From assembly GCF_013122565.1 (NCBI RefSeq), contig NZ_CP053258.1: a DNA stretch of 64,000 nucleotides. One strand, given 5' to 3'. The notes beneath the pieces are model-generated. The model made no database searches, was not told the origin of the DNA, and saw only the letters and a list, made by a program, of their open reading frames with translations. Of this stretch, positions 1-38,361 are shown piece after piece (the stretch's first letter is position 1; each line of letters opens with the position of its first letter). The translations under genes and the position numbers were made by a program. Origin of the DNA: Escherichia coli (GTDB lineage: Bacteria > Pseudomonadota > Gammaproteobacteria > Enterobacterales > Enterobacteriaceae).

Positions 1-1201
1 AGTCCCAGTGCAGGGTTTCATTGTCCAGATACTGGAGTGCTTCACCAACGTTATTGAAATCCCTTTTCTTCAGTTTATAAGACATCCCCTTTATTGTTCC
101 GTTACTGGCTACATCTGCTCCGCCTCCCAGCCTGTCTGCTACCGACCGACTAATTTTGTAAAGCTGTGAACCGTTAATGGCTTCATTACTGTCCGTCGAG
201 ATGTCACCTGCCGCCATATTGACGATGCGACGCTGTTGTGAGTTTGAGCCGACCGACACAACGTTGTCTTCATCTGTTGTAGAGTTTGCACCAATCGCGA
301 CGGAATTACTCCCTCCTACATAGGACGAACTCCCCAATGCAAGACCGTTTGATCCAACCGCTGCACTACCAGTCCCGATCGCAATACCATTTGTGGCTGA
401 CGCAGCGCTATTCTGGCCTAATGCAATGGTATTTGTGTTTAATGCTTGCGCATTTTGCCCAAAGGCAAGAGCGTTTGCGCCAGTAGCCGCTGCTGTATAC
501 CCCAGAGCAACAGCGCTTTCTCCTGTTGAATTGCTGTTTGCGCCTAATGCGAGGCTATTTTGGCCTCTTGCCCTCGCTTGAGTACCTACAGCCGTCGCAT
601 TTTCAGCAGCTTCGGTCTCTGCGCCTATCGCGATGGCGTTTGCTTCGCTAGTCAGGGCTTTTCTTCCTAATGCCAGGCTTTGCTCGCCGGTTGCCTTGCT
701 TTCATTGCCGAAGGCTAACGCGTAATTACCTTTAGCAATTGCCATTACGCCCATTGCCATCGCGTAGTTGCCACTCGCATCGGCGGAGGCTCCCATTGCG
801 GTAGCCCTATCGCCGCTAGCATAAGCATTAACCCCCAATGCGGTTGACGCATCGCCGCCAGCAGAACTTCTTGCACCGATAGACGTGCTATATTTACCTA
901 AAGCGCTGGCGAGCTCCCCAATAGCCGTCGATGCTCCATCGGTACTTGTGTGCTGGCTCGCTGTAGAGTTCTTACCGATAGCAACCCATCCATCACCACT
1001 ATTATGTCCTGCAGGTACAACGGGATTACCCGCAACATTATCTGCATATGCAAATGTCGATAACATTCCGCTGGCTGCAATTAACGTCGATACGAGCAGC
1101 TTACTGCGTCCAGACTTCTTTCCTCGACTCTTCGCCGTTTCGCTGGCGACACGAAAATTGCCCGTCGCTGGATCCCAGATAACTTTAAAAATTTTATTCA
1201 T
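1..1201 (-). CDS. upaG: Trimeric autotransporter adhesin (UpaG/EhaG/SadA-like), N-terminal ~400 codons; partial, continues beyond window start
   Basis: Hand translation of reverse strand from ATG at 1201: [36 protein letters not shown]... (extended signal peptide typical of autotransporters), then Gly/Ala/Ser-rich YadA-like head repeats (NSxAxG). Frame checked open to position 1. Missing from ORF track because no stop lies in the window. Confidence 0.75.
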
Positions 1202-1244
1202 GGTTGATGTTCTCTATTTCTTGATTTAAGCGCAGCGAGCATAT

Positions 1245-1946
1245 TTATTTTTTGCTTTTCCGCTGTTGAGTTGCAGTGGGTTGAAGGTTGTCGAATTGAA
1301 TATTTGTCATATCGATAGCTAACTTCAGATAGCTAAGGTTGTTAGGCGAAATGCCTTTAAGTGTGAGATTGATGTCCTGCCATTGCCCCGGCATTAATTG
1401 CAATGAGGATTTCAGCGAGGTGCTGAAAAGCAGTTGTTGCCATTTATCATAAGCTTTTGGATCCGTAGGTCTCTCAGCACCCCATGTGGCGTGGAAGCCA
1501 ATGTTGGAGACAGGAACACTTAACAGATTGACCAACGAAATACGAATAACACTGCCGTTTTCAACCGCGTCGATGGATAGCACTCGTCCCGCCAAACCAA
1601 CTGAGCCGTTATTTAAAATGAAGTATTTAGTTTGCGCAGGGTTAAATTCTGTGAATAGAAACTCATTTTGTTGTTTTTTGATTTCCTTCACGGCATCGGT
1701 AAGTATTCTTGTACTTCCTGTGATAATGTTTTGTTGCTTTTCAATAAGTTCCGTTTTATTGATGTACTGTTCTTGCTGTTTCTCCAGGGCGTCTATTCTG
1801 TTTTTTTGTAATTCTTGCTGTTTGGTTAGATCATCTATTAATTTTGTTTTTTCAACATAGTCACACCCCGTCAACGTGTAGAGTGATACTAAAGCCAGTA
1901 CGCTTAAGAGTATTGCCTTGAAGTTAATCATTGAATTCCTTTTCAT
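1245..1946 (-). CDS. Lipoprotein with coiled-coil region, SadB-like (putative helper for the adjacent trimeric autotransporter)
   Basis: 233-aa ORF; signal peptide with lipobox LTGC; Q/E/K-rich heptad-like segment; ends 43 bp upstream of the adhesin start on the same strand. Confidence 0.6.
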   Translation of the reverse strand: MKRNSMINFKAILLSVLALVSLYTLTGCDYVEKTKLIDDLTKQQELQKNRIDALEKQQEQYINKTELIEKQQNIITGSTRILTDAVKEIKKQQNEFLFTEFNPAQTKYFILNNGSVGLAGRVLSIDAVENGSVIRISLVNLLSVPVSNIGFHATWGAERPTDPKAYDKWQQLLFSTSLKSSLQLMPGQWQDINLTLKGISPNNLSYLKLAIDMTNIQFDNLQPTATQQRKSKK

Positions 1947-2454
1947 TATCTTCCAATAAGGGTGAATTTTTTAGCGAATCATCTTTTAAATAAATAATTC
2001 ATTGCTTATGTATTTGTGGTAGGAATCATAAATAAGCGATCGGATTTTTAGCATCATTAATATATTATTAAGTATCAACTGATTTAAAATTATTTCAAAA
2101 GGTATTAAAGCGCGGGGATTCTAATTAACAATGTTAATTAATGTCAAATGTAAAGTAGCTAATGATTGGCACTCTGAGAACTGAATATTGCTGTAAGTGA
2201 AATTAGCGCAATAGTTTTTGTGATATTGATCGGGGCAATATCAGTATCGGTTATCAGTTAATCAATGAAATGCGATAATCTATTTGTTATATTTATATAA
2301 TATTTTTTTTGCTCAACACATTTTTCAGACAATAGTCCGCAGCAATGACTCAAGAGCTAGAGAGAAGGAGGGGATGGAACTTAGTTTTTTTGCCTCTGAA
2401 GCAAACTCCTGCATCTCTCTGCAGGAGCGATTTGTCATTTGAGATACTGTCTTC

Positions 2455-2817
2455 TTAAAACGCAGTCTTAGAGAATCCTGTCATCTCCTGCAGGCCCATT
2501 TCGCGGCCCAGCGCGGTCATTGGGTGCACAACCACCAGTCCGCGCACACTTTTCTTCAGCTTGCCCATGTCAGCCTGCTCTTTTTTGGTAATTGCGCGCT
2601 GAAACGGCATCTTCATCAGCTTCTGTGCTTCTTTACTCAGTTTCTGGCTGTGAACTTCACGCAGGCGGGCAATTTCTGCTTCCAGCGTGGCTTTCTCTTT
2701 TTCCAGCTCGGCATATTTGTCTGCGGCTTCAACCAGCGACAGATCGGCCTGCTGGTGGCGGATGGCGTCCAGACGATCGCTGAGACGTTTGATTTCGTTT
2801 TTTTCGACTTCTTTCAT
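2455..2817 (-). CDS. yibL: YibL, DUF2810 family protein
   Basis: 120-aa [34 protein letters not shown]... recognised as E. coli YibL. Confidence 0.85.
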
Positions 2818-3101
2818 GTGATGGCTTCTGATAAAGATAAATTTATAGCCCCTAGTATGCGCGACCAGGTGCTTTGTTCACAACTGATGACATTGCAATA
2901 GTTCTGTAATGTAATCATTAATATGCTTAAAAACTACGCAATTTATTGATTAATTAAGAAATCTATAGAAAAAAGATAATAAACAGCAGCGGATGATTAT
3001 TGAGGATTCAGCACGTTTTCCTTAATGTCATCTTTACCGGGAACCTAAACTAAAATAGGCGGCCGCGCATTCCCGGCGCGGGGTAATACGGAGATATCAT
3101 C

Positions 3102-3311
3102 ATGGGCAAATTAGGTGAAAACGTTCCGCTTCTTATCGATAAAGCCGTAGATTTCATGGCATCAAGCCAGGCGTTCCGGGAGTATCTGAAAAAACTTCCT
3201 CCCCGTAACGCGATTCCGTCCGGAATACCCGATGAAAGCGTGCCGTTATATCTACAACGTCTGGAGTATTATCGTCGGCTTTATCGGCCGAAGCAGGTAG
3301 AGGGGCAGTAA
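3102..3311 (+). CDS. yibT: Small protein YibT
   Basis: 69-aa [34 protein letters not shown]...; SD-like ACGGAG upstream; position between mtlR and yibL matches K-12 order. Confidence 0.7.
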
Positions 3312-3322
3312 GCAGACGTTGC

Positions 3323-3910
3323 TTACTTTTGGAAGGCTTTTTTTAAGCTGATTTTGGAAATCAGCTCTGTCAGTGAAAGGACCATTGTTGATCGCACAGC
3401 CTGTTGATAGCGCTGAATTTGCATTGCATACAAACTGGAGTCTGCAGGTTCAAACTGTGGCGGCGGTGGTAACGCCGCCACGCAATGCAGTTCACCAAAG
3501 GGTCCAAGGATTTCGTCGTCGGTAAACGCGTACTCGTTGCCGTCGTGATTTAGCTCTTCACGCAATGCCATCAGCAGTTCCGCATCTTCGTATTCCTGGC
3601 GGTTAATGACGCCCAACCCGTAAATGAGTTTTAAACGCACAGAAAGATCGCCCAGCGGACCATCGCCGTCGAGTAACGGTTCTACAGCATACTTCACCGC
3701 GTAATCGTCTTTGCGGAATACCTGAAGCACCAGAAGATTTACCGCTTCGGTCAGGAGCTCGACGGCGGTGATCAGAAAGCTTCGCACGGTTTTGCCAGCA
3801 TTCAGACGCTCAAGCACACGGTTTTCAAAGGCCTGGGTTTGTTCCATTATTGCCTGCATATCTGACAATCTGTTATTCGGGCGCAGGGTGTCCTGCGCCT
3901 GGTCCACCAT
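3323..3910 (-). CDS. mtlR: Mannitol operon repressor MtlR
   Basis: 195-aa [39 protein letters not shown]...; immediately downstream of mtlD. Confidence 0.9.
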   Translation of the reverse strand: MVDQAQDTLRPNNRLSDMQAIMEQTQAFENRVLERLNAGKTVRSFLITAVELLTEAVNLLVLQVFRKDDYAVKYAVEPLLDGDGPLGDLSVRLKLIYGLGVINRQEYEDAELLMALREELNHDGNEYAFTDDEILGPFGELHCVAALPPPPQFEPADSSLYAMQIQRYQQAVRSTMVLSLTELISKISLKKAFQK

Positions 3911-5058
3911 TATTGCATTGCTTTATAAGCGGTTACCGCCTCGGATACAACCTCGCTGTTGGCATCAAGACCGGAAATCTGTGCCAGCGCTGCCTGCGGA
4001 CCTTTGTCAGCGATCAGTGCTGCCAGTTCCTGAGCCTGCGGATCATCTTCACTGCGGAAGTGCATTGCAGCGGCAATACCTTCAATCAGGTTTTTATGTG
4101 GCAGACCATATTCCAGCGTACCGAGCAGTGGCTTGATCAGACGGTCGCCAGCACTCAGTTTACGCAGCGGCTGACGGCCTACGCGCTCAACATCATCTTT
4201 CAGATACGGGTTCTCAAAACGACCGAGGATTTTCTGGATGTACGCCGCATGTTTGTCTGCGTCAAAGCCGTAACGCTTGATCAGTACCGCGCCGCTTTCT
4301 TCCATCGCACCTTTTACCACCGCGCGGATTTTCTCGTCGAGAATCGCGTCACGAATGGTCTGATGACCCGCCAGTTTTCCGAGGTACGCGGTTATAGCAT
4401 GACCTGTGTTCAGGGTGAAGAGTTTACGTTCGACAAATGCCATCAGGTTGTCGGTTAACTCCATGCCTGGGATGTTCGGCAGTGCGCCTTTGAACTGCGT
4501 TTTATCGACAATCCATTCGCTGAAGGTTTCTACCGTCACTTCCAGAGGATCGTTAGTTGCCGAAGCCGAAGGCGGCACGATGCGGTCAACGGCGGAATCG
4601 ACAAAGCCAACGTGTTCTTCTACCCACGTTTTGGCGTCTTCTGGCAGGGCGTTCATCACATGGCCTTTCAGCTGCGTGGTACCGCGTACCATGTTTTCAC
4701 AGGCGATGATGTTCAGCGGGGATTCATTACCTTGTTCTTTACGTTTCACCAGCCCTTTGGCGATAGCCGGAGCAATACGTTCCAGCACAACCGGGCCAAC
4801 GGCGGTAGTGACTAAATCGACCTGAGCAATCAGATCAACGACATCATCACCAATGCTGCTGACAGCATTGACGCCGGAAACGGTATCAACCTGCTCGGTT
4901 TCACCAACCACATGAACCTGATAGCTATGACGGGCATTCAGGGCATCAAGTACCACCTGATTGACATCGGCAAACGTCAGTTGGATACCCGCGTCTGCCA
5001 GCAGTTTACCGATAAAGCCACGACCGATATTACCTGCGCCAAAATGTAATGCTTTCAT
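3910..5058 (-). CDS. mtlD: Mannitol-1-phosphate 5-dehydrogenase
   Basis: ORF track gives 3910..5376 (488 aa); true start taken as [17 protein letters not shown] (382 aa, Rossmann GxGxxG). The upstream extension runs through REP sequences. Confidence 0.9.
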
Positions 5059-5084
5059 AGTATTAACCTTCATCAATGTTTTTA

Positions 5085-5285
<201 letters not shown>

Positions 5286-5287
5286 GA

Positions 5288-7201
5288 TTACTTATGACCT
5301 GCCAGCAGTTCCAGCACTTCATCCACGCTGGTGGTGTGTGCCAGACGCTCGATGACGGACTCATCATCCAGTGCATTGGTCAGGCTGGTGATAACCTGAA
5401 TGTGCTCGTTGTTGCGGGCAGCAATACCAATCACCAGACGGGCAATGTCATCTTCTTCTTCACCGAAGCGCACGCCTTCCGGGTACTGGCAGAACACGAC
5501 GCCCGTTTTCAGTACGCGATCTTTCGCTTCAACCGTACCGTGTGGCACCGCGATAGACTCACCCAGATAAGTCGGGGTCAGTTTTTCACGATCCAACATC
5601 GCCTGAACGTATTCCGGCTCAACGTAACCGCCTTTCACCAGCTGCTCGCCAGCAAAACGAATCGCTTCTTCTTTGGTTGCCGCTTTGCGACCGAGGAAGA
5701 TGTTCTCCGCGCCCAGTTTGAATAGGTTAGCACTGGAATCGTCAAAGCTGTCTTTCAGACTGTCTTTCACTTTCACTTCGTTTTCAGTATGGCGCTGGGC
5801 AGCAACCAGACGTTCGGTCAGGCTGGTGTACAGGCCACTGTCGAGGAAGTTGGTCAGCGAAATATGCTGCGCCTGCGGAACCTGGCGCATAGCGCGTTCG
5901 GTCAGGTCACGGTGAGTGATGACGAGGTCCACATCTGGCGGCAGGTTGTTGATCGCGCTGTTAGTGACCGAAATCTGCGACAGACCTGCATCCTGAATTT
6001 TCTTACGCAGCACGCCTGCGCCCATCGCACTTGAACCCATACCGGCGTCACAGGCAACGATGATTTTACGTACGTGGCTCAGGTCGTTAGTCACATCACC
6101 CGCAGACAGCGGAGATGCGCCTTTAGACTCAGCTTTCATGTCCTGCATACGACGAGTTGCTGCTTCAATATCATCTTCTTCTTTCACTTTGCTGGTTTTC
6201 AGCAAAATAGCAGAGACAACGAAGGAGACAGCCATCGCCGCACACACACCCGCGATGTTAGCGAAATAAGCACCTTTTGGTGTCATCGCCAGTACCGCAA
6301 GGATAGAACCCGGAGATGCCGGAGAAACCAGACCACCGCCCAGGATAGTCAGCGTGAACACGCCAGTCATACCGCCGAGGATAACGGCCAGGATCAGACG
6401 CGGATTCATCAGCACATACGGGAAGTAGATTTCGTGGATACCACCCAGGAAGTGGATGATTGCCGCACCACCCGCAGACTGTTTAGCACTACCACGACCA
6501 AAGAACATGTACGCCAGCAGCACGCCCATACCTGGACCTGGGTTAGCTTCAATCAGGAAGAAGATGGATTTACCCAGTTCATGGGACTGCTGAATACCCA
6601 GCGGCGAGAAGATACCGTGGTTAATGGCGTTGTTGAGGAACAGGATTTTCGCCGGTTCAACAAAGATAGATGCCAGCGGCAGCATGTCATGGACAACCAT
6701 GAAGTTAACGCCCGCAGCCAGCATTTTGGACAGGGCTTCAACAATCGGGCCAATGCCGAGGAATGCCAGAATGGCGAGGATCATCCCGATGATGCCTGCG
6801 GAGAAGTTATTCACCAGCATCTCAAAACCGGATTTGATCTTACCGTCTACCCAGCGGTCGAAGTGCTTAATGCACCAGCCGCCCAGCGGACCTGCAATCA
6901 TAGAGCCGAGGAACATCGGCATGTCTGCGCCGACGATAACGCCCATGGTGGTGATGGCACCGACTACGCCGCCACGTTCGCCGCCTACCAGCTTACCACC
7001 GGTATAACCGATCAGCAGCGGCAGGAGGTAAGTGATCATCGGTCCGACTAGCTTCGCCAGCGTCTCGTTCGGTAACCACCCTGTTGGAATAAATAATGCG
7101 GTGATGATACCCCACGCGATAAACGCGCCGATATTTGGCATCACCATGTTGCTGAGGAAACGACCAAAGCTTTGCACTTTGATCTTAATATCGGATGACA
7201 T
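5288..7201 (-). CDS. mtlA: PTS mannitol-specific EIICBA component
   Basis: 637-aa [40 protein letters not shown]...; recognised as MtlA. Confidence 0.95.
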
Positions 7202-19375: not shown

Positions 19376-21341
19376 GATGGCGATGCTTTTCCTCATTCAC
19401 CCAGATCCGCATTTCACCTTCACCCCGGTTAGCCCAGCTAAACCACGGGATAAATGTCAGAGTTTGCGGCTGGCGTTTGGCTGGGGCATAGTCGTAATGC
19501 CACAACGGTTGTTGTTCTGGATTGCTCTGTTCATACCGGTAACCCGGTGCCTGGATTAAGATCTTATGGCTGAACAATCCCTTACCTTCAAATGTCGTAA
19601 ATGGCGCATCGGCGGGCAGCCACAGATTATGCAGTGACTCGCCGTTGTCAGCCTGTTCCAGGCAATACACCAGCGGGCCGCGCTGAATCGCCACTTTTCC
19701 GGCGACGTGACGCACCAGCGGGTTACCGTAAACGCGGCGTACCGGCATCGGCAAAGTCAGATTCAGCGTATCGCCCTCCTGCCATTCGCGGGTAATGTGC
19801 AAATACCCTTTACGAATATCCTGCTCGACCTCTTCCCCATTCAATATGATCTGCGGCTGTGTGCACCAGTCCGGCAGACGTAAAGCCAGCGTATGACGTA
19901 CCGGCTGGGGCGATTCAACCGCAATCGTCACCTGCTCCTGCCACGGATAGTTCCCGCTAACCCGCAGGCGCAGCGTGCCATTTTCTACCGGCACTTCCAT
20001 GCTGTTTCCTGCGTATATGTTGATATACAACGCATCTTCACGCGGCGTGTAGAGATAATGACCGATTGAGGTCAGCACGCGGGCGATATTTGGCGGACAA
20101 CAAGCGCAGCCAAACCAACGCTGGCGGATCGGCTTAATGTGATCGTAGATATGGTTGAATTTCAGCGATTTTGGATGTACTTCCAGCGGATTCACATAGA
20201 AGAAATGTTTGCCATCCAGCGCCATGCCGCCGAGCACAGTGTTGTACAGTGCGCGCTCCATCACATCGGCATATTGACTGTCGCCTTCCATTTCCAGCAT
20301 TCGTCGGGCGAACATCATCAGGCCGATGGAAGCACAGCTTTCGGCGTAAACCGTGTCATTCGGCAGATCGTAATCGCTGCTGAACGCTTCGCCGCTACTC
20401 TGTGAGCCAATGCCACCGGTAATATATAACTGACGCTGGGCCATATTGTTCCACAGCCGCAGGCAGTCCTGACGCTTGCTGTCATCGTGACTTAAACGCG
20501 CGAGATGCGCGACGCCGGTCATCAGGTAGACAAAACGTACCGCGTGACCGATGGCGGTTTGCTGTTGCGCAAGGGGCAAATGTGCCTGGCTGTAGGCTTT
20601 GTCTTTCACCATCCACGCCGGGCCGTAGGTGTGCCAGTGCGAGGTCTGCCCGCGCTTTTCATATTCCTGGTCGTAATAGTGCGGTTGCGCACCACGCTGT
20701 TCGACAAAATAGTTCGTCAATGCCAGGTAGCGCGGCTCTTCGGTCACTTCATACAGACGCATCAGTGCCAGTTCAATTTCCGGGTGACCAGGGTAACCGT
20801 GTAACTTACTTTCATCTGGACCAAATACGCTGTCGATATGATCGGCCAGACGGCAAACCACTTCCAGCAAGCGCCGCTTGCCCGTGGCCTGGAAGAAGGC
20901 GACTCCAGCTTCAATCAGATGACCGGCGCAGTAAAGTTCATGACACTCCGCCAGATTGCTCCAGCGTTCTTCGGGCGCTTTTACCGTAAAGTAAGTATTG
21001 AGATAGCCGTCTTCGCACTGGGCGGAGGCGATCAGTTCGATTACCTCGTCGGCGGTTTTTTCCAGTTCGGCGTCCGGCTTCTGGCACAGCGACCAGGCTA
21101 CCGCTTCCAGCCATTTGGCGACGTCGCTGTCCTGAAACACCATCCCGTAAAATTCACCCTCCTGAAGTCCGGCGGCAATGCGAAAGTTTTCAATCGCATG
21201 GCTGGGTTCCGCTTCTGGGATACGATCGTTCAAGGCATCCCACTGATAAGGAATCACCACGTCGCGGACCAGTTGTTGGTACTGACCGAGGAACGGATCG
21301 CTGACCGTCAGTTTATGCAGATCGACTTCCGAAATGTTCAT
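19362..21341 (-). CDS. Glycoside hydrolase family 127 (DUF1680; beta-L-arabinofuranosidase-like)
   Basis: ORF track 19362..21365; start trimmed to MNISEVD (ATG at 21341) because AAGGAG lies 6 nt upstream. Contains YAESCASIG and WFGCACCPPNIAR motifs, matching the Glu/Cys and Cys-Cys signatures I associate with GH127. Confidence 0.75.
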   Translation of the reverse strand: MNISEVDLHKLTVSDPFLGQYQQLVRDVVIPYQWDALNDRIPEAEPSHAIENFRIAAGLQEGEFYGMVFQDSDVAKWLEAVAWSLCQKPDAELEKTADEVIELIASAQCEDGYLNTYFTVKAPEERWSNLAECHELYCAGHLIEAGVAFFQATGKRRLLEVVCRLADHIDSVFGPDESKLHGYPGHPEIELALMRLYEVTEEPRYLALTNYFVEQRGAQPHYYDQEYEKRGQTSHWHTYGPAWMVKDKAYSQAHLPLAQQQTAIGHAVRFVYLMTGVAHLARLSHDDSKRQDCLRLWNNMAQRQLYITGGIGSQSSGEAFSSDYDLPNDTVYAESCASIGLMMFARRMLEMEGDSQYADVMERALYNTVLGGMALDGKHFFYVNPLEVHPKSLKFNHIYDHIKPIRQRWFGCACCPPNIARVLTSIGHYLYTPREDALYINIYAGNSMEVPVENGTLRLRVSGNYPWQEQVTIAVESPQPVRHTLALRLPDWCTQPQIILNGEEVEQDIRKGYLHITREWQEGDTLNLTLPMPVRRVYGNPLVRHVAGKVAIQRGPLVYCLEQADNGESLHNLWLPADAPFTTFEGKGLFSHKILIQAPGYRYEQSNPEQQPLWHYDYAPAKRQPQTLTFIPWFSWANRGEGEMRIWVNEEKHRHPEVG

Positions 21342-21351
21342 CTTGTGCTCC

Positions 21352-22752
21352 TTAAGGCTGTACATGACGCTGACGCAGGTCGGTAGCTATGCGTGACATC
21401 ATAGGATTATTGAGTTTGCAAAAGCGGATCGCCCCTGCCAGCAGCAGGTGAAATAGCGCAGGCAGTAATGTTTCCATCGCCGCGATCCCGCCAAGCGAAC
21501 TGGCGGTCTGGTTTTCCATGCCTGGCTGGTAGGCGACAAAAATAAACAGCAGGCTGATGATCCCGGCGCTGGAGGCCCAGGCCAGCTTGATGAAAAACAG
21601 ATTGAAGGCGAAGTTCATGCCGGAAGAACGTACGCGGGTTTTCCACTCGCCGTAGTCATCGGCAAAGGCCATCAATGAGAAGTGCAGTGGCAATGTGAAG
21701 CCAAGAATTACGCCATTACCGAGGATCACCGCCAGCCACAGCGTTTGATAAGCCGGGCCGGAGGGCAGGAACCACATCAACACCGCCAGCGCAGCGAGGA
21801 GCAGGTTGGTGTAGTAGTAAATTTTGACGGTATCGAAACGCCGCGTTAACGGGCTGACAATCACCGAGCCGATAATGGAGGCGAAGGTGACCATGGTGAA
21901 GAACAGCGACGTGTAGCCCGTACTGCCTTGTAAGACGTAGGTAATGAAGTACATATACCCACCGCCGCGAATATTAAAGACGTTAATCAGCAGGAAAGAC
22001 ATGACCAGCATCAGCAGCAGTTGGTCGTTGTTCCGCAGCCCGGCAAGATGTTCGCGCAGGGTAAATTTCCCCATTGTGGAGAGCGGCACCCGTTCACGAA
22101 CCCAGAAAAAACAGCACAGGAACATCACCACGGCAATGGCGCACAATACGCCGACGCCCAGTTGATAGCCGCGTGCAGCGTTGCCCTGACCGAAGAGATC
22201 TACCATCCACGGTAAGCCTACCGAAACCAGAAATCCCGCTACGCCGCAGAGAACGAATCGCCAGGACTGGCAGGAGATCACTTCATTGTGGCGGGTGGTC
22301 ATGGTGTTGATCAGCGCGCAGTACGGTACGTTGATGGCGGTATAACCGACTGAAAGGAGCAGGTAAGTACCGAACGCCCAGGCGATTTTTACTCCCATGC
22401 TGGCATCTGGCACGGTGAACGTCAGGATGCCGATAATGCCGATGGGAATGGCAATCCATAGCTGCCACGGACGAAAGCGCCCCCAGCGACTTTGCGTCCG
22501 GTCGGCAATGACGCCCATCACCGGGTCGGAGATGGCATCAAACACGCGCAGTGCAATAAACAGCGTGCCAACCAGCGCCGGAGTTAATCCAAAAACGTCG
22601 GTGTAGAAAAAGGTGAGAAAATTCATGATCAGGCAAGTTATTACGGTGCCGCCTGCGTCACCCAGGCCGTAGCCTATTTTTTCCCGTACAGATAACGCAT
22701 CGTCAATTTTACCTTTAGCGATATCAGCGGTAGTAATCGGTGTAGAGGTCAT
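21352..22752 (-). CDS. MFS transporter, glycoside-pentoside-hexuronide (GPH):cation symporter family
   Basis: 466-aa ORF; N-terminal [10 protein letters not shown]...[20 protein letters not shown] motif typical of MelB/UidB-type symporters; about 12 TM segments; stop overlaps the SD of the downstream hydrolase. Confidence 0.8.
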
Positions 22753-22884
22753 AGATATTCCTCGTGAATAGGGAGCAATTTTTAGTTTTATTGCAATGAC
22801 CTGATTAATTCTGCCGTGAACGGGAATATCAACAAGGCGAGAAAAGAGTAAAAAAAGGTGACGATTCCGACCTGTATTTAAAAG

Positions 22885-22900
22885 TGTGAAATGGATCAGG
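22885..22900. promoter_or_regulatory. CRP-like half-consensus site in divergent promoter region between GPH transporter and AraC regulator
   Basis: tgtgaaatggatcagg (TGTGA-N6-TCAGG) in an AT-rich intergenic region; weaker than the mtl sites. Confidence 0.35.
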
Positions 22901-22977
22901 TGAAATTAATGTTTTTGATTAATAATCAAAAGGTAATGTGTTTAATCCTTAATAAATAAGCGGGAAATTACATATCA

Positions 22978-23793
22978 ATGCTCGAATTATCCATGACGTT
23001 ACCGATTAAAGTGCAAAATGGTGGATTATTTATTTCCCGTGGCGTAGGGAGGCATCCGGCAAGGCGGCTGGAGTCATGGGAAATTATCTTTGTCGAAAAA
23101 GGTCGATTAACGATTCAGGAAGAAGAACGGATATTTCTGGTCGATGCGGGAGAGAGTTTATTACTCTGGCCGAACCGACAGCATGTTGGGGTGGAGGATT
23201 TTCCCGCCGATCTCAAATTTTACTGGCTGCATTTTGAGGTTAAAGCGCCGGACAACGACCCTCGCTGGCTTACTCATCTTAGCGTGCCGCAACAAACGAA
23301 GGTTGCCGATCCGCAGGCGCTGGTGGCCCTGTTTCGCCAGTTCTTAAGCGAACAGGAAAAGCATCAACGCACTCCGGCGCTGGAGTTTATTGTGCTGCTC
23401 ATTTTGCAGCAGCTCACCCGTGACGCGCGTCTTGATGAACAGGCCGATGGCGCAGGCACCACCCTTGCCTGGAAGGCGCAGAAACTGATTCGCACGCAAT
23501 ATCACCGCCCGCTTTCCACGGCGCTTCTGGCCCGCGAGCTGTACTGCAATGCCGATTATCTTGGGCGTGTCTATCGGCGAGTGTTTCATCTGACGCTTAC
23601 AGAAGCAATCCACCGCCAGCGGGTGCGCGAAGCCGAAAAGCTGTTAATTAGCGAAGCTCGATCGCTCACGGAAGTGGCGGCGTTGTGCGGGTTTAATGAC
23701 GTTGGCTATTTCCGGCAGATTTTTCGCAAGCACACCGGTTTAACGCCAGCAGCGTGGAAGCGGCGTTACAGCAAGGAACATATCAATTCGTAG
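22978..23793 (+). CDS. AraC/XylS-family transcriptional regulator
   Basis: 271-aa ORF (true start may be M6 at 22993); N-terminal cupin-like effector domain, C-terminal double HTH (...LTEVAALCGFNDVGYFRQIFRKHTGLTPAAWKRR); divergent from the transporter-hydrolase pair. Confidence 0.8.
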   Translation: MLELSMTLPIKVQNGGLFISRGVGRHPARRLESWEIIFVEKGRLTIQEEERIFLVDAGESLLLWPNRQHVGVEDFPADLKFYWLHFEVKAPDNDPRWLTHLSVPQQTKVADPQALVALFRQFLSEQEKHQRTPALEFIVLLILQQLTRDARLDEQADGAGTTLAWKAQKLIRTQYHRPLSTALLARELYCNADYLGRVYRRVFHLTLTEAIHRQRVREAEKLLISEARSLTEVAALCGFNDVGYFRQIFRKHTGLTPAAWKRRYSKEHINS

Positions 23794-23794
23794 T

Positions 23795-23816
23795 GCCGGG
23801 GCGATGAAGCCCCGGC
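23795..23816. terminator. GC-rich hairpin between convergent AraC-regulator gene and sgbE
   Basis: Stem gccgggg (23795..23801) / ccccggc (23810..23816), 8-nt loop; no clear U-tract, so terminator function is tentative. Confidence 0.4.
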
Positions 23817-23824
23817 GTGAGGGA

Positions 23825-24520
23825 TTACTGCCCGTAATAGGCATTGTCTCCATGCTTACGCAGGTAGTGCTTATCCAGCAGTTCGTTTTGCATGGCAGGG
23901 AGCTGCGGCGCAAGCTGGCGCGAGAACAGGCCCATATAGGCGCACTCTTCCAGCACCACGGCGTTATGCACCGCATCGGCGGCGTTTTTTCCCCAGGCGA
24001 ACGGGCCGTGAGAATGTACCAGTACCGCAGGGATTTGTGCCGGGTTCAGCCCACGCTCTTCGAAGGTTTCAATGATCACTTCGCCGGTCTGGTATTCATA
24101 CTCGCCGTTGATCTCCTCTGCGGTCATCAGGCGCGTGCAGGGGATGGCACCATAGAAATAATCGGCGTGCGTGGTGCCCCAGGCGGGGAGATCCAGCCCG
24201 GCCTGCGACCAGATGGTAGCGTGGCGCGAGTGGGTATGCACAATGCCACCGATTTCGGCATAGCGACGGTAAAGTGCCAGATGCGTTGGCGTATCGGAAG
24301 AGGGCTTTTTGCTACCTTCCACCACCTTGCCGCTGGCTAACTCAACCACCACCATATCGTCGGCGGTCATCACGTCATACTCGACACCGGAAGGTTTAAT
24401 CACCATCCATTGCCGCGTTTCGTCTACCGCGCTGACATTGCCCCAGGTAAACGTCACCAGATGTTGAGCGGGAAGCGCCAGGTTAGCCGCCAGCACGTCG
24501 TTTTTCAGTTGCTCTAACAT
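23825..24520 (-). CDS. sgbE: L-ribulose-5-phosphate 4-epimerase
   Basis: 231-aa [49 protein letters not shown]... (class II aldolase/AraD fold). Confidence 0.9.
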
Positions 24521-25374
24521 ATAAAACCTGCCTCCTGCATACGCGCTTCAATCCAGCGCCGCGCCTGAATGATCTCCAGCACCGGCTCTTTGGCTTTTTC
24601 GGTCCACATCTCAATCAGGAAAGAACCGCGATAGTTCAGTTCATGCAGCGTTTTGAAGATGCCAACGAAATCGACGCAGCCTTCGCCAAACGGCACATCA
24701 CGGAACTGTCCGGGGCTTTGTTCGGTCACTGGCTGGGTGTCTTTCAGGTGGATCGCGGCGATACGGTCAATGCCCAGTTTCAGTTCGGCGGGAACATCAT
24801 TGCCCCAGGCGCTGAGGTTGCCGACGTCCGGGTAGACGGTGAACCACGGCGAGGCGAGCATCTCGTCCCACTTTTTCCATTTACTGATGGAGTTCATAAA
24901 CGCGGTATCCATAATCTCCACCGCCAGCATTACTTGTGATGCCGCCGCCTGTTCGACCGCCCACGCCAGCCCTTCAGCAAAACGTTGTTGGGTGCCTTCG
25001 TCGTGGTCTTCGTAATAGACGTCATAACCTGCCAGTTGAATGGTGCGAATGCCGAGATCGCGCGCCAGGCGAATTGCTTTACTCATGATCTCCCGCGCCC
25101 GTTCGCGCACCGCTTCGTCCCGGCTGCCAAAAGGAAAACGACGGTGGGCAGACAGGCACATTGACGGAATGGCAACACCCGTTTCGATCATCGCAGTGAC
25201 CAGCGAAGCACGTTGTGCGGCGCTCCAGTCAAGACGTGAGAGCCGTTCGTCGGTTTCATCCACCGACATTTCGACAAAATCAAAGCCACAGCTTTTTGCC
25301 AGCACCAGCCGCTCCGGCCAGGAGAGATCTTTCGCCAGCGCTTTTTCATAAATCCCTAACGGATGATTACGCAC
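24514..25374 (-). CDS. sgbU: L-xylulose-5-phosphate 3-epimerase
   Basis: ORF track 24514..25464; start trimmed to [23 protein letters not shown] (286 aa, TIM-barrel sugar isomerase-like). Confidence 0.85.
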
Positions 25375-26029
25375 GCGCACCTCCCCAGATGGCATCAATT
25401 TGTGCATGGAAATCGCCAGCCACCTGCACCGGATTTGCTGCGCCTGCCAGTGCTCGCCCGGCAATAAACGCTTTCACGCGAATATCTTTAAACAGCGGCA
25501 GGTCAGCAGGGGTAATCCCGCCGGTAATGGAAAGCTCAAGGCCGATATCGGAAAGCGCCTTCATGCGTGCCAGATCGGCCTCGCCCCACTGTTGCCCGCT
25601 GGCCTGTGCATCACGACCGCGATGATAAATGGCCTGCCGCACGCCAATACGATGCCAGTCGCGGGCGTCGTCCAGCGTCCAGTTACCGAACAGCTCTATC
25701 TGAATTTCACCCCCGCAGCGTTGCGCCATTGCGTGGCCTTTTTCTACCGTCGCGAGCGGCGCGGCGCAGATGATGGTCATCCAGTTAGCGCCTGCGCCAA
25801 ACGCCTGTTGCGCGAGCGTTTCACCAGCGTCGGCGACCTTCCAGTCAGCAACGATGATTTTGTCCGGGCACTGTTCGCGCAAGGCTTTCACCGCGCCAAG
25901 CCCTTCGTTTAAACAGAGAATGGTGCCCGCTTCGACGATATCGACGCTGTCTTTTAACAGCGTCACGTCGCGCTGTGCGTCTTCAAGTGATGAGTGGTCG
26001 AGGGCCAGTTGCAGAAGTGGTCGGCTCAT
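25367..26029 (-). CDS. sgbH: 3-keto-L-gulonate-6-phosphate decarboxylase
   Basis: 220-aa [39 protein letters not shown]... (OMP-decarboxylase-like). Confidence 0.9.
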
Positions 26030-27522
26030 AATGTGTGCTCCTTGATGCGGGCGTGATAACCCTGAAGTGCGGCAATGAAATGCTGATAGCGTTGGTATTT
26101 TTGTTGGTAAAGCTGATGGGCGGTCATATCCGGCAGCAGGGTGCGTACCGGGTGCTGTAAATCACGTTGGGCTTCGCTGAAATCGCGATAAACTCCGGTG
26201 CCGACGCGGGCGGCAAGTGCTGCACCAAAGCAGCCGGTTTCTTCCACCTGCGGCAGCTCGATACGCAGACCGCTGACGTCCGCCAGCATTTGCATCCAGA
26301 CATCGGAATGCGCCGGGCCGCCAGTGACGCGCAGGGTGTGCACATCAGTAAAACGTTCGCGCATCCGGTTGAGATGGGTCATATGGCTGAACACCACGCC
26401 TTCATAAATGGCCTGCAACAGGTGTGCGCGGGTGTGAATGGCCTGCATCCCGTAGAAACCGCTGGTCATCTCGAGTCCGGCGTTGCTGCCGTACAGGAAC
26501 GGCAGGAAAAAGAGGTCGCCCCCGGCCTTCGGCAAGCTGGCTACGGCCTGGTTAATCTCATCAAACGAGATTTCTCCCCACTGTGCGGTAAACCATTCGA
26601 GGTTGCCGGAAGAGGTGGGGCTGGCTTCGTGAACGATAAATTGACCATCGTTAACGTAGCGACCATAGACATACGGATGCGCTTCACCGTCACGTAAACC
26701 GCGGGTTATGCCGCTGGTCACCGCCCAGGTGCCCATCACCGCATTAAGGGTAAATTCGTCTTCGATCCCGGCACAGAGTGCGGTGGAAACCACATCAAAC
26801 AGGCCGCCGACAACGGGCGTACCCGCTTTCAGACCGGTCAGTGCGGCTGTCTGAGCGGTGATTTCCCCGCAGATTTCGGCAGATCCCACAACCGGCGGCA
26901 GGGCGTGGTTGATTTCAGCGATCCCCAGCCAGTCGGTGAGACACGGGTCATATTTCCCGCGACTCATGTTGTAGAGATTGGACTCGGAAATATTGCTCTC
27001 TTCACAGCCTTTGACGCCAGTTAAACACCAGCGCAGGTAGTCGTGCGTCATCATCACGCAGCCAATTTGCGTGTAGCGTTCCGGTTCGTGCTCTTTCAGC
27101 CAGCGTAACAGCGACACCGGATGCCCGGTCCACAAGGTTTGTCGGGTCAGCGGGTAGAGTTTTTCCGGGATGCCATCTTCCTGCCAGCGGCGAACGATTT
27201 CCATCGCCCGGCGATCCGAGGACAAAATGGCGTTACCGAGCGGCTTGTTGTTTTTATCCAGCAAAAACAAGCCTTTTCCTTGTGCGGAGATACCGATACC
27301 CACTATTTGCTCCCCGCTAACGCCGGAATGGGTAAGCAGGGCGCGAATGACAGCCATGCAGCATTGCCACAGTTCTGCCATATCGCGCTCTGCCCAGCCT
27401 GGCTGCGGGCTTAATGCGCACAGCGGCAGGCGCTGCACGCCTGCCTCCCGGCCTTCGCGGTCATACAGCCCGGCTTTCAGCCAGCTACCGCCACAATCTA
27501 ACCCCAGCCAGTATTGCGTCAT
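26026..27522 (-). CDS. lyxK: L-xylulose/3-keto-L-gulonate kinase
   Basis: 498-aa ORF MTQYWLGLDCGGSWLKAGLYDREGREAG... (FGGY carbohydrate kinase). Confidence 0.9.
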   Translation of the reverse strand: MTQYWLGLDCGGSWLKAGLYDREGREAGVQRLPLCALSPQPGWAERDMAELWQCCMAVIRALLTHSGVSGEQIVGIGISAQGKGLFLLDKNNKPLGNAILSSDRRAMEIVRRWQEDGIPEKLYPLTRQTLWTGHPVSLLRWLKEHEPERYTQIGCVMMTHDYLRWCLTGVKGCEESNISESNLYNMSRGKYDPCLTDWLGIAEINHALPPVVGSAEICGEITAQTAALTGLKAGTPVVGGLFDVVSTALCAGIEDEFTLNAVMGTWAVTSGITRGLRDGEAHPYVYGRYVNDGQFIVHEASPTSSGNLEWFTAQWGEISFDEINQAVASLPKAGGDLFFLPFLYGSNAGLEMTSGFYGMQAIHTRAHLLQAIYEGVVFSHMTHLNRMRERFTDVHTLRVTGGPAHSDVWMQMLADVSGLRIELPQVEETGCFGAALAARVGTGVYRDFSEAQRDLQHPVRTLLPDMTAHQLYQQKYQRYQHFIAALQGYHARIKEHTL

Positions 27523-27525
27523 GGT

Positions 27526-28512
27526 TTATTGCACCTCATCCACGGCTTTCAGCAGATCAGCGCCCTGCGGCACATCTTTAACAAACATGTCGCGAACCTG
27601 ATTCCCCAGCGCGTCGCTAAAGGCTTTGCGGTCGAGATCGGTGATGACTTCCACGCCCGCTTCTTTCATGCCGTCGATGATTTTTTGCTGATCTTCGGCA
27701 ACCAGTTTGCGCTGGTAGTTACCCGCTTCCTGCGCAGATGAAATTAGCGCTTGCTGGAACTCCGGGCTTAAGCCATCAAACTTCGCTTTGTTGATCACCA
27801 CCAGAAGTGGCGAATAGGCGTGGTGCGTCAGAGAAAGGTACTTCTGTACTTCGAAAAATTTTGCTGACCAGACGACGTTGATCGGGTGTTCCTGAGCGTC
27901 GATAGTGCGCGTTTCCAGCCCGGTATAGACTTCGGCAAACGGCATCGGGATTGGGTTAGCGCCAAAGACTTTGAATGCTGCGATATTCATCGGACTATTG
28001 TTGGTGCGGATTTTCAGCCCTTTCAGGTCGGCGGGGGTTTTAACCGGTGCGCGCGAGTTGGTGACATCGCGCCAGCCGTTTTCCCAGTAGGCCAGTACTT
28101 TTAGTCCTTTACCTTCAAGTGAGGCTTTCAGATCATCACCGACTTTGCCGTCGAGCGTTTTATGCGCGTGAGCGGTATCGCGGAACAGGAAAGGGACATC
28201 AAGCAAGTTCATCACTGGTGATAACCCGGCAAAGTTATTCGAGCCGGACATTTCCATATCGATGGTGCCGCCACGTACGCCGCTGATCATCGCCTGCGCG
28301 TTACCGAGAGTGCTGTCCGGGAACAGTTTTAATTTCAGCTCGCCTTTGGTTCTCTCCTGCAATAAATCATTGAATTTTTTCGCCGCAATATGTTGCGAGT
28401 CGGTTTGTGAGGTTTCATAACCGAAACGTAAAGATTGCGCCGCCAGTGAAGGTGTACTGAATGCAGCCAGGCCAGCAATGAATAATGCGTAGGTTACAGA
28501 GCGTAATTTCAT
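27526..28512 (-). CDS. yiaO: TRAP transporter periplasmic solute-binding protein (2,3-diketo-L-gulonate)
   Basis: 328-aa ORF with signal peptide MKLRSVTYALFIAGLAAFSTPSLA; DctP family. Confidence 0.9.
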   Translation of the reverse strand: MKLRSVTYALFIAGLAAFSTPSLAAQSLRFGYETSQTDSQHIAAKKFNDLLQERTKGELKLKLFPDSTLGNAQAMISGVRGGTIDMEMSGSNNFAGLSPVMNLLDVPFLFRDTAHAHKTLDGKVGDDLKASLEGKGLKVLAYWENGWRDVTNSRAPVKTPADLKGLKIRTNNSPMNIAAFKVFGANPIPMPFAEVYTGLETRTIDAQEHPINVVWSAKFFEVQKYLSLTHHAYSPLLVVINKAKFDGLSPEFQQALISSAQEAGNYQRKLVAEDQQKIIDGMKEAGVEVITDLDRKAFSDALGNQVRDMFVKDVPQGADLLKAVDEVQ

Positions 28513-28524
28513 AATATTTTCCTT

Positions 28525-29802
28525 TTAATTAATCCATTTCAAAGGGAGGATGATGAGATCGGGAATAAAAATAAATACGACTAATAATGAATATAAAACC
28601 AGGACGTAAGGGAAAACGCCTCTGACTGCATCATCGAATTTGAGTTTTGCCACCCCTGAAATAACGTTAAGCACATTACCGATAGGCGGTGTAATTAAGC
28701 CGATTGAGCAGTTAATGATAAACATGACACCGAAATAAATCGGATCGATTCCTGCCTCTTTAACTAAAGGCATTAATACCGGGGTAAGAATTAATACCGT
28801 CGGCGTTAAATCCATGACCATGCCGACAATCAGGATAGCCACCATAATGACGATAAACAGCAGACGCGGTGAATCGACTAGCGGTTGCAGTAAATCAGAA
28901 ACCATCATCGGCAGTTCAGCAATGGTGATCAGCCAGGCGGAAACTTGTGCCGAGGCCACCAGAAACATCACCACTGAGGTCGTTTTCGCTGCGCCAATGA
29001 GCACATGCCAAAGTGTGGCGAAGGTCATTTCACGGTAAATAACTGTGGCGACAAACAACGCATAGAAAGCAGCAACGGCCCCGGCTTCGGTAGGGGTAAA
29101 CAGACCGGAGCGAAAACCCCCAATAATGATGACCGGAAGAAACAGCGCCCAGATACCGGAGACAAAAGAGTGCCAGATTTCCTGCATCGTCGCTTTTTGC
29201 TGGCGGGGTAAGTTAAGACGACTGGCCTGCCACCACCAGGTAAGCATCAGCGTTGCGCCCATCATCATGCCAGGGGCAATGCCCGCCATAAACAGCTTAC
29301 TGATGGATAATCCGCTGGAAACGCCGAAGATAATAAACGGAATGGAAGGGGGAATAATTGGCGCGATAATGCCGCCAGAGGCAATCAGCCCCGCAGCCCG
29401 GTTGACCGGGTAGTTGGCGCTGCGCATCATCGGCACCAGTAGTGCGGCAACGGCGGCGGTATCCGCAACGGCAGAACCAGAAAGGCTCGCCATAATCATA
29501 GCCGCCAGCACGCCGACGTAGCCCAGCCCGCCTGGTTTATGCCCCACCAGTTTCATCGGCAGGTCAACAATGCGTTTTGACAAGCCGCCCGCATTCATGA
29601 TTTCACCCGCCAGCACAAAGAACGGAATCGCCAGCAGGGAGAAACTGTCGGCTCCGTTCACCAGCGTTTGTGCCATGATCTGGACATCAAACATCTCCAG
29701 CCAGAACATCAACGCTGCGCCGCATAACAAAAGTGCCCAGGCAATAGGCAAACCGATAGCAATGCCACCTAACAGGCAGCCCAGAAAAATCAGCACAGCC
29801 AT
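28525..29802 (-). CDS. yiaN: TRAP transporter large permease
   Basis: 425-aa polytopic membrane ORF, DctM family. Confidence 0.9.
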   Translation of the reverse strand: MAVLIFLGCLLGGIAIGLPIAWALLLCGAALMFWLEMFDVQIMAQTLVNGADSFSLLAIPFFVLAGEIMNAGGLSKRIVDLPMKLVGHKPGGLGYVGVLAAMIMASLSGSAVADTAAVAALLVPMMRSANYPVNRAAGLIASGGIIAPIIPPSIPFIIFGVSSGLSISKLFMAGIAPGMMMGATLMLTWWWQASRLNLPRQQKATMQEIWHSFVSGIWALFLPVIIIGGFRSGLFTPTEAGAVAAFYALFVATVIYREMTFATLWHVLIGAAKTTSVVMFLVASAQVSAWLITIAELPMMVSDLLQPLVDSPRLLFIVIMVAILIVGMVMDLTPTVLILTPVLMPLVKEAGIDPIYFGVMFIINCSIGLITPPIGNVLNVISGVAKLKFDDAVRGVFPYVLVLYSLLVVFIFIPDLIILPLKWIN

Positions 29803-29804
29803 GA

Positions 29805-30278: not shown

Positions 30279-30395
30279 AGCTATTCCTTGAGGCTATGTT
30301 TGTCATAATTCAAGTTGCATGTGCAGCAACCTGAATTATTAATATGGTTAGAGTAATAACATTACCCTGGCGTTCTGGCGTAGACGATTATTTGA

Positions 30396-30866
<471 letters not shown>

Positions 30867-30874
30867 TTATCTCC

Positions 30875-31873: not shown

Positions 31874-32073
31874 CCCAGGCTTCCTTGTTTTTTTGATCGC
31901 TTTTTTGGCTTAAAATTTCAATATGCGAAACTTGATTTCAAATATATCGATCACTTTTTAACAAAGCAATCTGATTGATGAATTTCAAAAGACATAAAAA
32001 TCAAGTGGTTATAAATTATCTGTCGAGATCGTGAACTACGGCACACTTTGCGCTACCATCAGGACGCGACAAA

Positions 32074-33497: not shown

Positions 33498-33539
33498 AAC
33501 GTTTTTCCGGCGTTTCTCAACGCAGGGATAGTGCGCTTT

Positions 33540-38350: not shown

Positions 38351-38361
38351 TCTCATCATCG

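Follow-up and report, generated by a model that had tools for sequence, protein, structure and literature searches.

What system do the two genes at the start of this E. coli DNA form, and is the pair an acquired cassette or a long-standing resident of its site? The window, the whole stretch that was analysed, is 64,000 nucleotides long. Its positions 20000–40000 agree with E. coli genomes at 98% identity, and the closest contig carries an E. coli label, so a source outside E. coli was rejected. Within 1..1229, the open-reading-frame (ORF) listing shows only short plus-strand fragments, and an earlier note had proposed that the minus strand is instead one continuous open frame from ATG 1201 to the window edge. 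Translation bore this out: window 2–1201 holds 400 stop-free codons, a run for which we calculate odds of about 5e-9 in random sequence, as (61/64)^400. The frame is absent from the ORF track because the listing omits ORFs that run past the sequence ends. The plus-strand ORFs in 1..1229 were rejected as genes, being short and overlapping the strongly supported minus-strand frame.

That frame (1..1201, minus strand, as are all features below) is the 5′ part of a trimeric autotransporter adhesin gene that exits at the window edge. Its Pfam domains include both elements that had been read from the letters, an extended signal peptide (1043..1201; PF13018 ESPR, residues 1–45, E = 6.5e-14), probably cleaved after AYA at residue 53 (...STFAYA|DNVAG), and YadA-like head repeats over residues ~70–320 (242..994; PF05658 YadA_head, ten stretches, E = 7.2e-45). 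A neck and first stalk segment follows at residues 325–368 (98..229; PF05662 YadA_stalk, E = 3.9e-07). Because the window stops after codon 400, the adhesin of this genome might in principle be a truncated or disrupted pseudogene, which would make the pair a relic and no working system; disruption is frequent in large repetitive adhesin genes, and decay of the locus exists, the sadB orthologue of O157 Sakai having an early stop. We looked to relatives for a premature stop or a missing anchor domain. The closest, E. coli contig L002, is 99.65% identical to the window at the nucleotide level over 5.1 kb, and the 400 visible residues are 100% identical to the first 400 of its adhesin. Neither defect was found in this relative, which is not the window genome itself: its gene is intact and encodes 1299 residues with ESPR, 12 head and 9 stalk stretches and a YadA_anchor at 1239–1299 (Pfam, E = 4e-19), followed by lldP-lldR-lldD. 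In PDB searches, the Hia anchor (3emo) matches residues 1213–1299 of the L002 adhesin, its C-terminal part matches SadA fragments 2yo0 (E = 3.6e-124) and 2yo3 (E = 4.3e-77), and its head matches the solved YadA and UspA1 heads (1p9h and 3pr7). In a second contig, L003, the adhesin frame is open for 543 residues, up to the contig end. With no stop among the 400 visible codons either, we consider disruption of the adhesin very unlikely.

Upstream of the adhesin lies a lipoprotein gene, for which the earlier note had given 233 residues. The corresponding ORF exists and is the longest available (1245..1946, from ATG 1946 to the stop codon at 1245–1247), but translation most likely starts at ATG 1931, giving 228 residues (1245..1931). 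ATG 1946 sits within a conserved block, GAT(A/T)ATGAAAAGGAATTCA, and its equivalent in both CFT073 and 33F4 does not share the reading frame of the annotated start. By contrast, ATG 1931 follows AAGGA with 5 nt between them and yields a length that fits the 227–228-residue homologues. An exact-sequence database look-up of the 233-residue ORF returned no match, because databases carry the 227- and 228-residue forms.

The N terminus of the lipoprotein is a predicted signal peptide with the lipobox LTGC (1863..1931; ...LYTLTGC|DYVEK), in which Cys23 is encoded at 1863–1865 and Asp occupies the +2 position. D24 does not vary in any of the 20 sequences of the alignment, and C23, nearly invariant, occurs in all 19 full-length ones; Asp+2 is the inner-membrane retention signal of SadB (PMC3953254). 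The mature protein falls into two parts that differ in conservation. A glutamine-rich coiled-coil segment, from residue 24 to ~91 (1659..1862), is the most variable, with 46–67% identity to other alleles and 35% to Salmonella SadB. The conserved part is a C-terminal β-sandwich domain, from residue 92 to ~215 (1287..1658), with 79–85% identity to other alleles and 56% to Salmonella SadB. Ratios of dN/dS of 0.06–0.11 against three other alleles indicate that the gene is under purifying selection.

To which family does this lipoprotein belong? Its homology and structure model identify the gene as sadB-type, encoding a putative inner-membrane lipoprotein. A phmmer search of the PDB matched 4c47_A (SadB) at E = 1.8e-65 in one gapless stretch (query 29–233, chain 3–207), and the mature lipoprotein aligns gaplessly with SadB and 18 homologues, at an identity to Salmonella SadB of 48% in this alignment and about 48–53% overall. 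We had sought a lack of SadB-type similarity and instead found a match to 4c47 over the whole mature length. A single-chain AlphaFold2 model (mean pLDDT 75; 80–91 in the sandwich) consists of a helix to residue 89 and an eight-strand sandwich, with a helix at 158–168 in a long loop, in agreement with the published SadB, which is trimeric with nine heptads and an Ig/MATH-like β-sandwich (PMC3953254). In a Foldseek search of the PDB, 4c47 chains A–C rank first (E = 4.8e-20 to 1.1e-18); TM-scores to 4c47 are only 0.5–0.6, because helix orientation differs between our monomer model and the trimer. A Pfam scan of the lipoprotein returned no family at E ≤ 0.01 and did not reproduce RefSeq's DUF3251 name, so it is the PDB match and the RefSeq naming that carry the family assignment; RefSeq calls such a pair "SadB/YajI family lipoprotein" and "YadA-like family protein".

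That merged family name raises a different reading, in which the lipoprotein would be a paralogue of the YajI type, or some generic periplasmic lipoprotein, and its adjacency to the adhesin functionally meaningless. YajI, the E. coli SadB paralogue (PDB 2JWY), is distantly homologous and shares the lipoprotein, coiled-coil and β-sandwich plan, and 2jwy comes second in the Foldseek list. The lipoprotein also weakly matches NCBIfam PRK11530 (E = 4.5e-4), which we take to be the YajI model, its label reading only "hypothetical protein"; at 19.7 bits, however, this match is far under the model's 158-bit cut-off. Identity is ~49% to SadB versus ~16% to YajI. Moreover, the gene stands where sadB does, with a trimeric autotransporter adhesin 43 bp downstream, whereas yajI lies at a different locus elsewhere in the genome, unlinked to any autotransporter (PMC3953254). 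The 4c47 match, the PRK11530 score and the Foldseek identities effectively refute a YajI identity, which is barely conceivable. The lipoprotein is a full-length homologue of the crystallised SadB.

The chromosomal site supports the same assignment. The genes run mtlA-mtlD-mtlR-yibT-yibL-sadB-adhesin, an order shared with the upaG locus of CFT073 and the ehaG locus of O157 Sakai; mtlR, mtlD and mtlA flank one side in the window, and lldP flanks the other in L002. With identical neighbours in CFT073, Sakai and 33F4, the adhesin gene is orthologous by position to upaG, ehaG and sadA, and the literature likewise places these adhesin genes between mtl and lld (PMC3953254). The earlier note had recognized a SadB/SadA-like pair, and the PDB and Foldseek matches, the adhesin domains and this synteny uphold that reading. 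It had also stated that in K-12 yibL is followed directly by lldP, and the MG1655 coordinates agree: yibL (3776665–3777027) is followed directly by lldP (3777399), with sadB and the adhesin absent. Published work places the sadBA operon of Salmonella, Shigella and Escherichia between mtl and lld and attributes its loss in K-12 to a 5-kb deletion (PMC3953254). We found that this deletion begins 13 nt past the yibL stop, which explains why a stem-loop next to yibL (described below) is missing in K-12. The pair had been said to appear accessory, which holds to the extent that it is missing in K-12 and variably retained. It does not hold in the sense of an acquired island, given that ~76% of 5426 complete E. 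coli genomes carry a detectable relative of window 1–1946 at the same site. The sadB–adhesin locus is ancestral and variably retained.

Comparison with characterized members showed how closely the pair follows the known plan. Salmonella enterica SadB–SadA (STM3690–STM3691; PDB 4C47; Grin et al. 2014, PMC3953254) occupies the same mtl–lld site in the same order and orientation, and its SadB shares with the window lipoprotein the Asp at +2, a coiled coil of equal length (aligned without gaps) and the β-sandwich. SadA fragments closely resemble the C-terminal stalk and anchor of the L002 adhesin, and the 1299-residue length of that adhesin is a difference from Salmonella SadA. The CFT073 upaG locus runs yibL, lipoprotein (DUF3251/SadB-type), 43 bp, adhesin and lldP, like the window, and shares its promoter block, ribosome-binding block, yibL hairpin and adhesin domain plan. 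The CFT073 lipoprotein is 69.6% identical to that of the window; UpaG is 49.6% identical at the N terminus, with indels, and 68% over its C-terminal ~975 residues, and it measures 1778 residues against 1299 in the L002 relative. EhaG of O157:H7 (ECs_4480 in Sakai), also of type Vc, shares the site, the gene order and the 43-bp spacer, with 50.5% N-terminal identity to the window adhesin and a lipoprotein 65% identical to that of the window; codon 3 of the Sakai lipoprotein gene is TAG, while the window gene is intact. Against the adhesin of E. coli 33F4, the visible part of the window adhesin is 65% identical.

The layout of the two genes is consistent with a single transcript. As originally observed, the lipoprotein gene ends 43 bp upstream of the adhesin, with the spacer (1202..1244) lying between the stop codon at 1245–1247 and the adhesin ATG at 1199–1201. 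Its predicted fold reaches only −2 kcal/mol (z = +0.89), and a terminator scan of 1100–3150 found none. Spacers of 43 bp are likewise present in CFT073, 33F4, Sakai and L002, and the corresponding Salmonella spacer is 44 bp (PMC3953254). Upstream of sadB, a candidate sigma-70 promoter, TTGACA-18-TAGAAT (2118..2147), agrees with the consensus at 11 of 12 positions and falls within one of the three main blocks that the window allele has kept in common with CFT073 and 33F4 while the rest of the spacer has diverged. The consensus match, and conservation in only these three alleles, suggest that it may be the operon promoter. The spacer that contains it, between yibL and sadB, has 28–34% G+C, and this AT richness fits the H-NS repression of UpaG that PMC5012682 reports.

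The left border of the variable segment is marked by a 9-bp stem-loop (2405..2428), just past the stop of yibL (2455..2817; NCBIfam PRK11020 YibL, E = 8e-57), a conserved flanking gene outside the system. Over a 70-nt stretch it folds at −19.6 kcal/mol (z = −2.67), and its stem is kept in CFT073 and 33F4 with different loops. It is likely the yibL terminator; its T-tail is too weak for the terminator scan, and we found it by alignment and folding. High E. coli identity resumes exactly at yibL (97.5% versus 33F4). An Rfam scan of window 1–3400 at E ≤ 1 returned no matches, and thus no known RNA element in the spacers.

Taken together, these data make it highly probable that window 1–1946 is the promoter-proximal part of an enterobacterial sadBA-type operon at its usual mtl–lld site in an E. 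coli genome. In the model that we propose, a promoter in the AT-rich yibL–sadB spacer would drive a bicistronic transcript. The first product, the SadB-type lipoprotein, would be exported, lipidated at Cys23 and retained at the inner membrane by Asp+2, from where it would extend a glutamine-rich trimeric coiled coil and three β-sandwich domains into the periplasm. The second would be a type Vc autotransporter adhesin of the UpaG/EhaG/SadA lineage, with ESPR, YadA-like head, neck and stalk repeats and a YadA anchor. By homology with Salmonella SadB, the lipoprotein trimer may help three adhesin chains to trimerise in register after Sec export, so that more, and more intact, adhesin would reach the surface and promote matrix binding, aggregation and biofilm formation. 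The single transcript and the adhesin function are predicted from gene layout and domain content; trimerisation and helper activity of the lipoprotein are extrapolated from the sole characterized SadB, to which it is ~48–53% identical.

SadB is a trimeric inner-membrane lipoprotein that raises SadA's display at the surface, its helper activity is demonstrated only for the Salmonella SadB–SadA pair, and it trimerises only at high local concentration (PMC3953254). In a 2026 survey, SadB homologues were confined to Enterobacterales. Acinetobacter TpgA–AtaA likewise places the gene for a small envelope protein that promotes surface display beside a trimeric autotransporter; TpgA is unrelated to SadB, however, having BamE-like and OmpA-like domains, and it acts at the peptidoglycan and the outer membrane, not as an inner-membrane coiled-coil lipoprotein. 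For the adhesin, SadB helper activity may be dispensable, because the Sakai sadB orthologue stops at codon 3 and because Totsika et al. (2012) reportedly found that UpaG and EhaG both work after expression in K-12 hosts, which have no sadB.

Where, then, does this particular allele come from? Window sadB is at most 78% identical to other alleles, and none of the 5426 complete E. coli genomes matches window 1–1946 at ≥90% nucleotide identity. One explanation, which concerns origin and not function, is that the promoter, sadB and the adhesin's N-terminal half are a recent foreign cassette, recombined from another genus into conserved flanks, rather than an old E. coli allele. The absence of close E. 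coli matches would fit such an import, as would the profile of divergence: the flanks share 97–98% identity with E. coli, the match falls off from the yibL stop and is regained only at ~codon 710 of the adhesin, and synonymous sites are saturated in sadB (dS > 1.4) compared with 0.09–0.29 in yibL. Just three protein clusters reach 96% identity or more with the lipoprotein, and E. marmotae, E. ruysiae, E. fergusonii, Pseudocitrobacter and Salmonella carry related alleles. Yet the search turned up no closer donor: among alleles that are not identical, the nearest (74–78%) come from E. coli and E. marmotae. Other E. coli sadB alleles are as distant from one another (pairwise 65–98%, median 74%), and dS is saturated among CFT073, 33F4 and Sakai too, so deep divergence belongs to the locus and not to the window allele. 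A recent import is therefore unlikely, although it retains some weight. The window carries a rare allele of a known locus, and comparable divergence is general among sadB alleles.

This pattern led us to speculate that each SadB allele, chiefly through its fast-evolving coiled coil, is tuned to its own adhesin's N-terminal passenger, acting as an allele-specific rather than a generic helper. If true, such matching would explain both the saturated synonymous divergence and the 46–67% coiled-coil identity within one species. Simple hitchhiking fits equally well, with sadB adjoining a surface antigen under diversifying selection. Furthermore, a 900-nt adhesin stretch is 85% identical between L002 and 33F4, whose sadB genes are 76% identical; mosaic segments of this kind within the adhesin gene argue against strict co-inheritance of sadB and adhesin. 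We regard allele matching as quite improbable.

The pair is already known, being published and named in RefSeq, and matters little beyond correct annotation: the appropriate annotation is a partial trimeric autotransporter adhesin for the gene at the window edge, and a SadB-family protein of 228 residues starting at ATG 1931 for the lipoprotein. Beyond this, the adhesin is a rare allele with a head substantially unlike those of UpaG and EhaG, which could bear on adhesion specificity or strain typing, and the anciently diverged sadB alleles of Escherichia, kept under purifying selection, offer a modest lead on the specificity between helper and adhesin.

Translation of the window revealed a minus-strand frame of 400 codons without a stop, running from the ATG at 1199–1201 to base 2, a run expected by chance with a probability of about 5e-9. 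Consistent with the earlier note, which had read this frame as a trimeric autotransporter adhesin with an extended signal peptide and YadA-like head repeats, Pfam placed an ESPR (extended signal peptide) at residues 1–45 (E = 6.5e-14), YadA_head in ten stretches (E = 7.2e-45) and a YadA_stalk/neck motif at residues 325–368. NCBIfam returned only likeness to Ata, EmaA, YadA and BimA, in partial matches below threshold, which is what a fragment from another trimeric adhesin should give. ORFs running off the source never enter the ORF list, which is why it lacks the adhesin and has nothing but short plus-strand fragments in 1..1229; the miss is an artefact of the tool and not biology.

The adhesin frame runs off the window edge, and its missing part was taken from relatives identified by querying databases with the two nearest lipoproteins. 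The closest available relative, a 132.7-kb E. coli contig (L002; GCA_052983875.1), is 99.65% identical to the window at the DNA level over 5.1 kb. Its adhesin, followed by lldP, lldR and lldD, has 1,299 residues, of which 1–400 are identical to those of the window, and comprises an ESPR, 12 head stretches, 9 stalk stretches and a YadA_anchor at 1239–1299. The C-terminal third resembles solved SadA fragments (2yo0, E = 3.6e-124; 2yo3, E = 4.3e-77) and the anchor matches Hia. In a second contig with a close allele (L003), the adhesin frame stays open to the contig end (543 residues). Because the frame is complete and anchored in the first contig and open in the second, the premature stop or absent anchor named beforehand as counter-evidence is not found in the closest available relative, in which the adhesin is intact.

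The lipoprotein ORF (1245..1946, minus strand) gave a single match in a PDB sequence search: 4c47, the Salmonella 'inner membrane lipoprotein' SadB (E = 1.8e-65), with residues 29–233 aligning without gaps to 3–207 of the chain. Its signal peptide ends in an L-T-G-C lipobox, and the next residue is Asp; this Asp at +2, invariant in 20 of 20 aligned sequences, was the basis for predicting the inner-membrane retention of SadB that was later shown (PMC3953254). An AlphaFold2 model built from the alignment of 20 sequences has one long helix to residue 89 and then an eight-strand sandwich (pLDDT 80–91), with a short helix (158–168) within a long loop, in agreement with the nine heptads and the beta-sandwich with a helix in the beta5–beta6 loop published for SadB (PMC3953254). 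Foldseek against the PDB ranked three 4c47 chains first (E = 4.8e-20 to 1.1e-18), then YajI (2jwy, 16% identity) and, lower, MATH/SPOP domains, as published for SadB. Sequence match, lipobox with Asp at +2 and fold thus bear out the proposed likeness to SadB. The lipoprotein is SadB-type and not the paralogue YajI, because it scores only 19.7 bits against PRK11530, which we take to be the YajI model, far under the 158-bit cut-off. A scan of SadB-type lipoproteins with the Pfam copy used matched no family at E ≤ 0.01 (window 1245–1931; L002 10001–10684). RefSeq names many of these proteins 'DUF3251 domain-containing protein', and one database cluster (P0008) has a precomputed PF18241 match.

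The gene order in the window is adhesin, sadB, yibL, yibT, mtlR, mtlD, mtlA, with the expected 43-bp spacer between sadB and the adhesin gene (1202–1244, minus strand). Both order and spacer length recur in E. coli 33F4 ('YadA-like family protein' and 'SadB/YajI family lipoprotein'), CFT073 (adhesin annotated UpaG) and O157:H7 Sakai (ECs_4480, EhaG). In K-12 (MG1655), yibL is followed directly by lldP, as in the earlier note. The K-12 deletion, 5,197 bp relative to L002 (L002 9488–14684 against 7040/7041 of the K-12 locus), extends from 13 nt past the yibL stop to 58 nt past the adhesin stop, beside a REP element, and removes the yibL hairpin. A sadBA operon flanked by mtl and lld was described for Salmonella, Shigella and Escherichia by Grin et al. 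2014 (PMC3953254), with a 44-bp sadB–sadA spacer and a 5-kb K-12 deletion that takes out both genes; the authors showed that SadB is a trimeric inner-membrane lipoprotein that raises the surface display and protease resistance of SadA. A 2026 survey places SadB homologues in Enterobacterales only. The sadB–adhesin system is thus not new, and RefSeq has names for it. Further along, the mtlD ORF, listed as 488 aa (3910–5376, minus strand), is overextended, because the frame stays open through the mtlA–mtlD spacer, ahead of the true start (ATG at 5058, 382 aa). This spacer has a REP-like look, its translation containing motifs such as CPSPHGEG. At about 5143–5256 the window carries around 114 nt more than L002, which brings the spacer to 229 nt, as in K-12.

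Two in-frame ATGs lie at 1929–1946 (minus strand), the longest ORF beginning at ATG 1946. This ATG falls within a block, GAT(A/T)ATGAAAAGGAATTCA, conserved in CFT073 and 33F4; because the block's ATG is out of frame there with the annotated start, the block is better read as a ribosome-binding region. With AAGGA 5 nt ahead of ATG 1931, sadB most likely starts at that codon and encodes 228 aa, like its 227–228-aa homologues. The GenBank record behind L002 starts sadB one codon later, at ATT (227 aa, MNFK...). The 508-bp yibL–sadB spacer (28–34% G+C) has diverged from other alleles past easy blastn recognition. Its three main blocks conserved in the window, CFT073 and 33F4 are a 9-bp stem-loop just 3′ of yibL (2405–2428, minus strand; conservation and fold), a promoter-like TTGACA-18-TAGAAT site (2147..2118, minus strand; 11 of 12 consensus positions) and the ribosome-binding block. 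Together, the three blocks amount to a modest phylogenetic footprint over the operon control region. A terminator scan found no terminator-like site in 1100–3150, the 43-nt spacer is unstructured (-2 kcal/mol, z = +0.89) and Rfam has no match in window 1–3400. The AT-rich yibL–sadB spacer fits the H-NS repression reported for upaG in a passage of PMC5012682 that cites Totsika et al. 2012.

The genomic backbone of the window is E. coli: positions 20000–40000 are 98% identical to complete E. coli genomes, and the flanks from yibL onward 97.5% identical. Among 5,426 such genomes, window 1–1946 has no match of at least 90% nucleotide identity; 4,149 (76%) carry a detectable relative, the best being 80% identical over 82% of the query. 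In a collection of 5.8 billion proteins, no more than three clusters reach 96% identity with the lipoprotein, and the next is at 78%. Lipoprotein and adhesin N-terminus are, respectively, 74% and 65% identical to those of 33F4, 69.6% and 49.6% to those of CFT073 (UpaG), and 65% and 50.5% to those of Sakai (EhaG). This divergence is normal for the locus, because other alleles differ about as much: UpaG and EhaG share 54.5% identity at the N-terminus and their lipoproteins 65.6%, and sampled non-window alleles from Escherichia and related genera are 65–98% identical in pairs (median 74%). Among the window, 33F4, CFT073 and Sakai alleles, sadB dS is saturated (0.8 to above 3, mostly > 1.4) and dN/dS is 0.06–0.13; yibL dS in these four loci is 0.09–0.29. 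The coiled coil, 46–67% identical between alleles against 79–85% for the beta-sandwich, evolves much faster. Divergence sets in at the yibL stop and extends to around adhesin codon 710, past which identity to CFT073 returns to 91%. The sadB locus behaves as a set of ancient alleles, unlike ordinary core genes. These alleles are old and recombining, and the window thus adds a further rare one. A specific match between each SadB allele and its own adhesin allele is, in our view, improbable; mosaic segments within the adhesin gene argue for plain hitchhiking instead.

Taken together, frame, domains, SadB match and locus order confirm the earlier observation and support its interpretation, and sadB and the adhesin gene are both intact as far as visible. 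The two genes would form one transcript from a candidate promoter near 2118–2147. Given its lipobox and Asp at +2, SadB is predicted to be lipidated and kept in the inner membrane; by homology it would trimerise and, as Salmonella experiments suggest, help the adhesin chains to trimerise in register and to be exported. The adhesin may then mediate matrix binding, aggregation or biofilm formation, as work on UpaG and SadA suggests. The functions listed for EhaG in PMC7312957 point the same way. In Sakai, the sadB orthologue (about 13507–13515 of L007, the Sakai locus from NC_002695.2, upstream of ECs_4480) reads ATG AAC TAG AAG AAG... (M-N-stop-K-K-I-F-F), with a stop at codon 3, and the RefSeq annotation there is limited to ECs_4479, a 'hypothetical protein' of 193 aa that begins at an internal start and has neither signal peptide nor lipobox. 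Because of this stop, EhaG in Sakai may be without a functional helper. UpaG and EhaG reportedly worked when cloned into K-12, and this, with the Sakai stop codon, indicates that the helper SadB is probably not indispensable.
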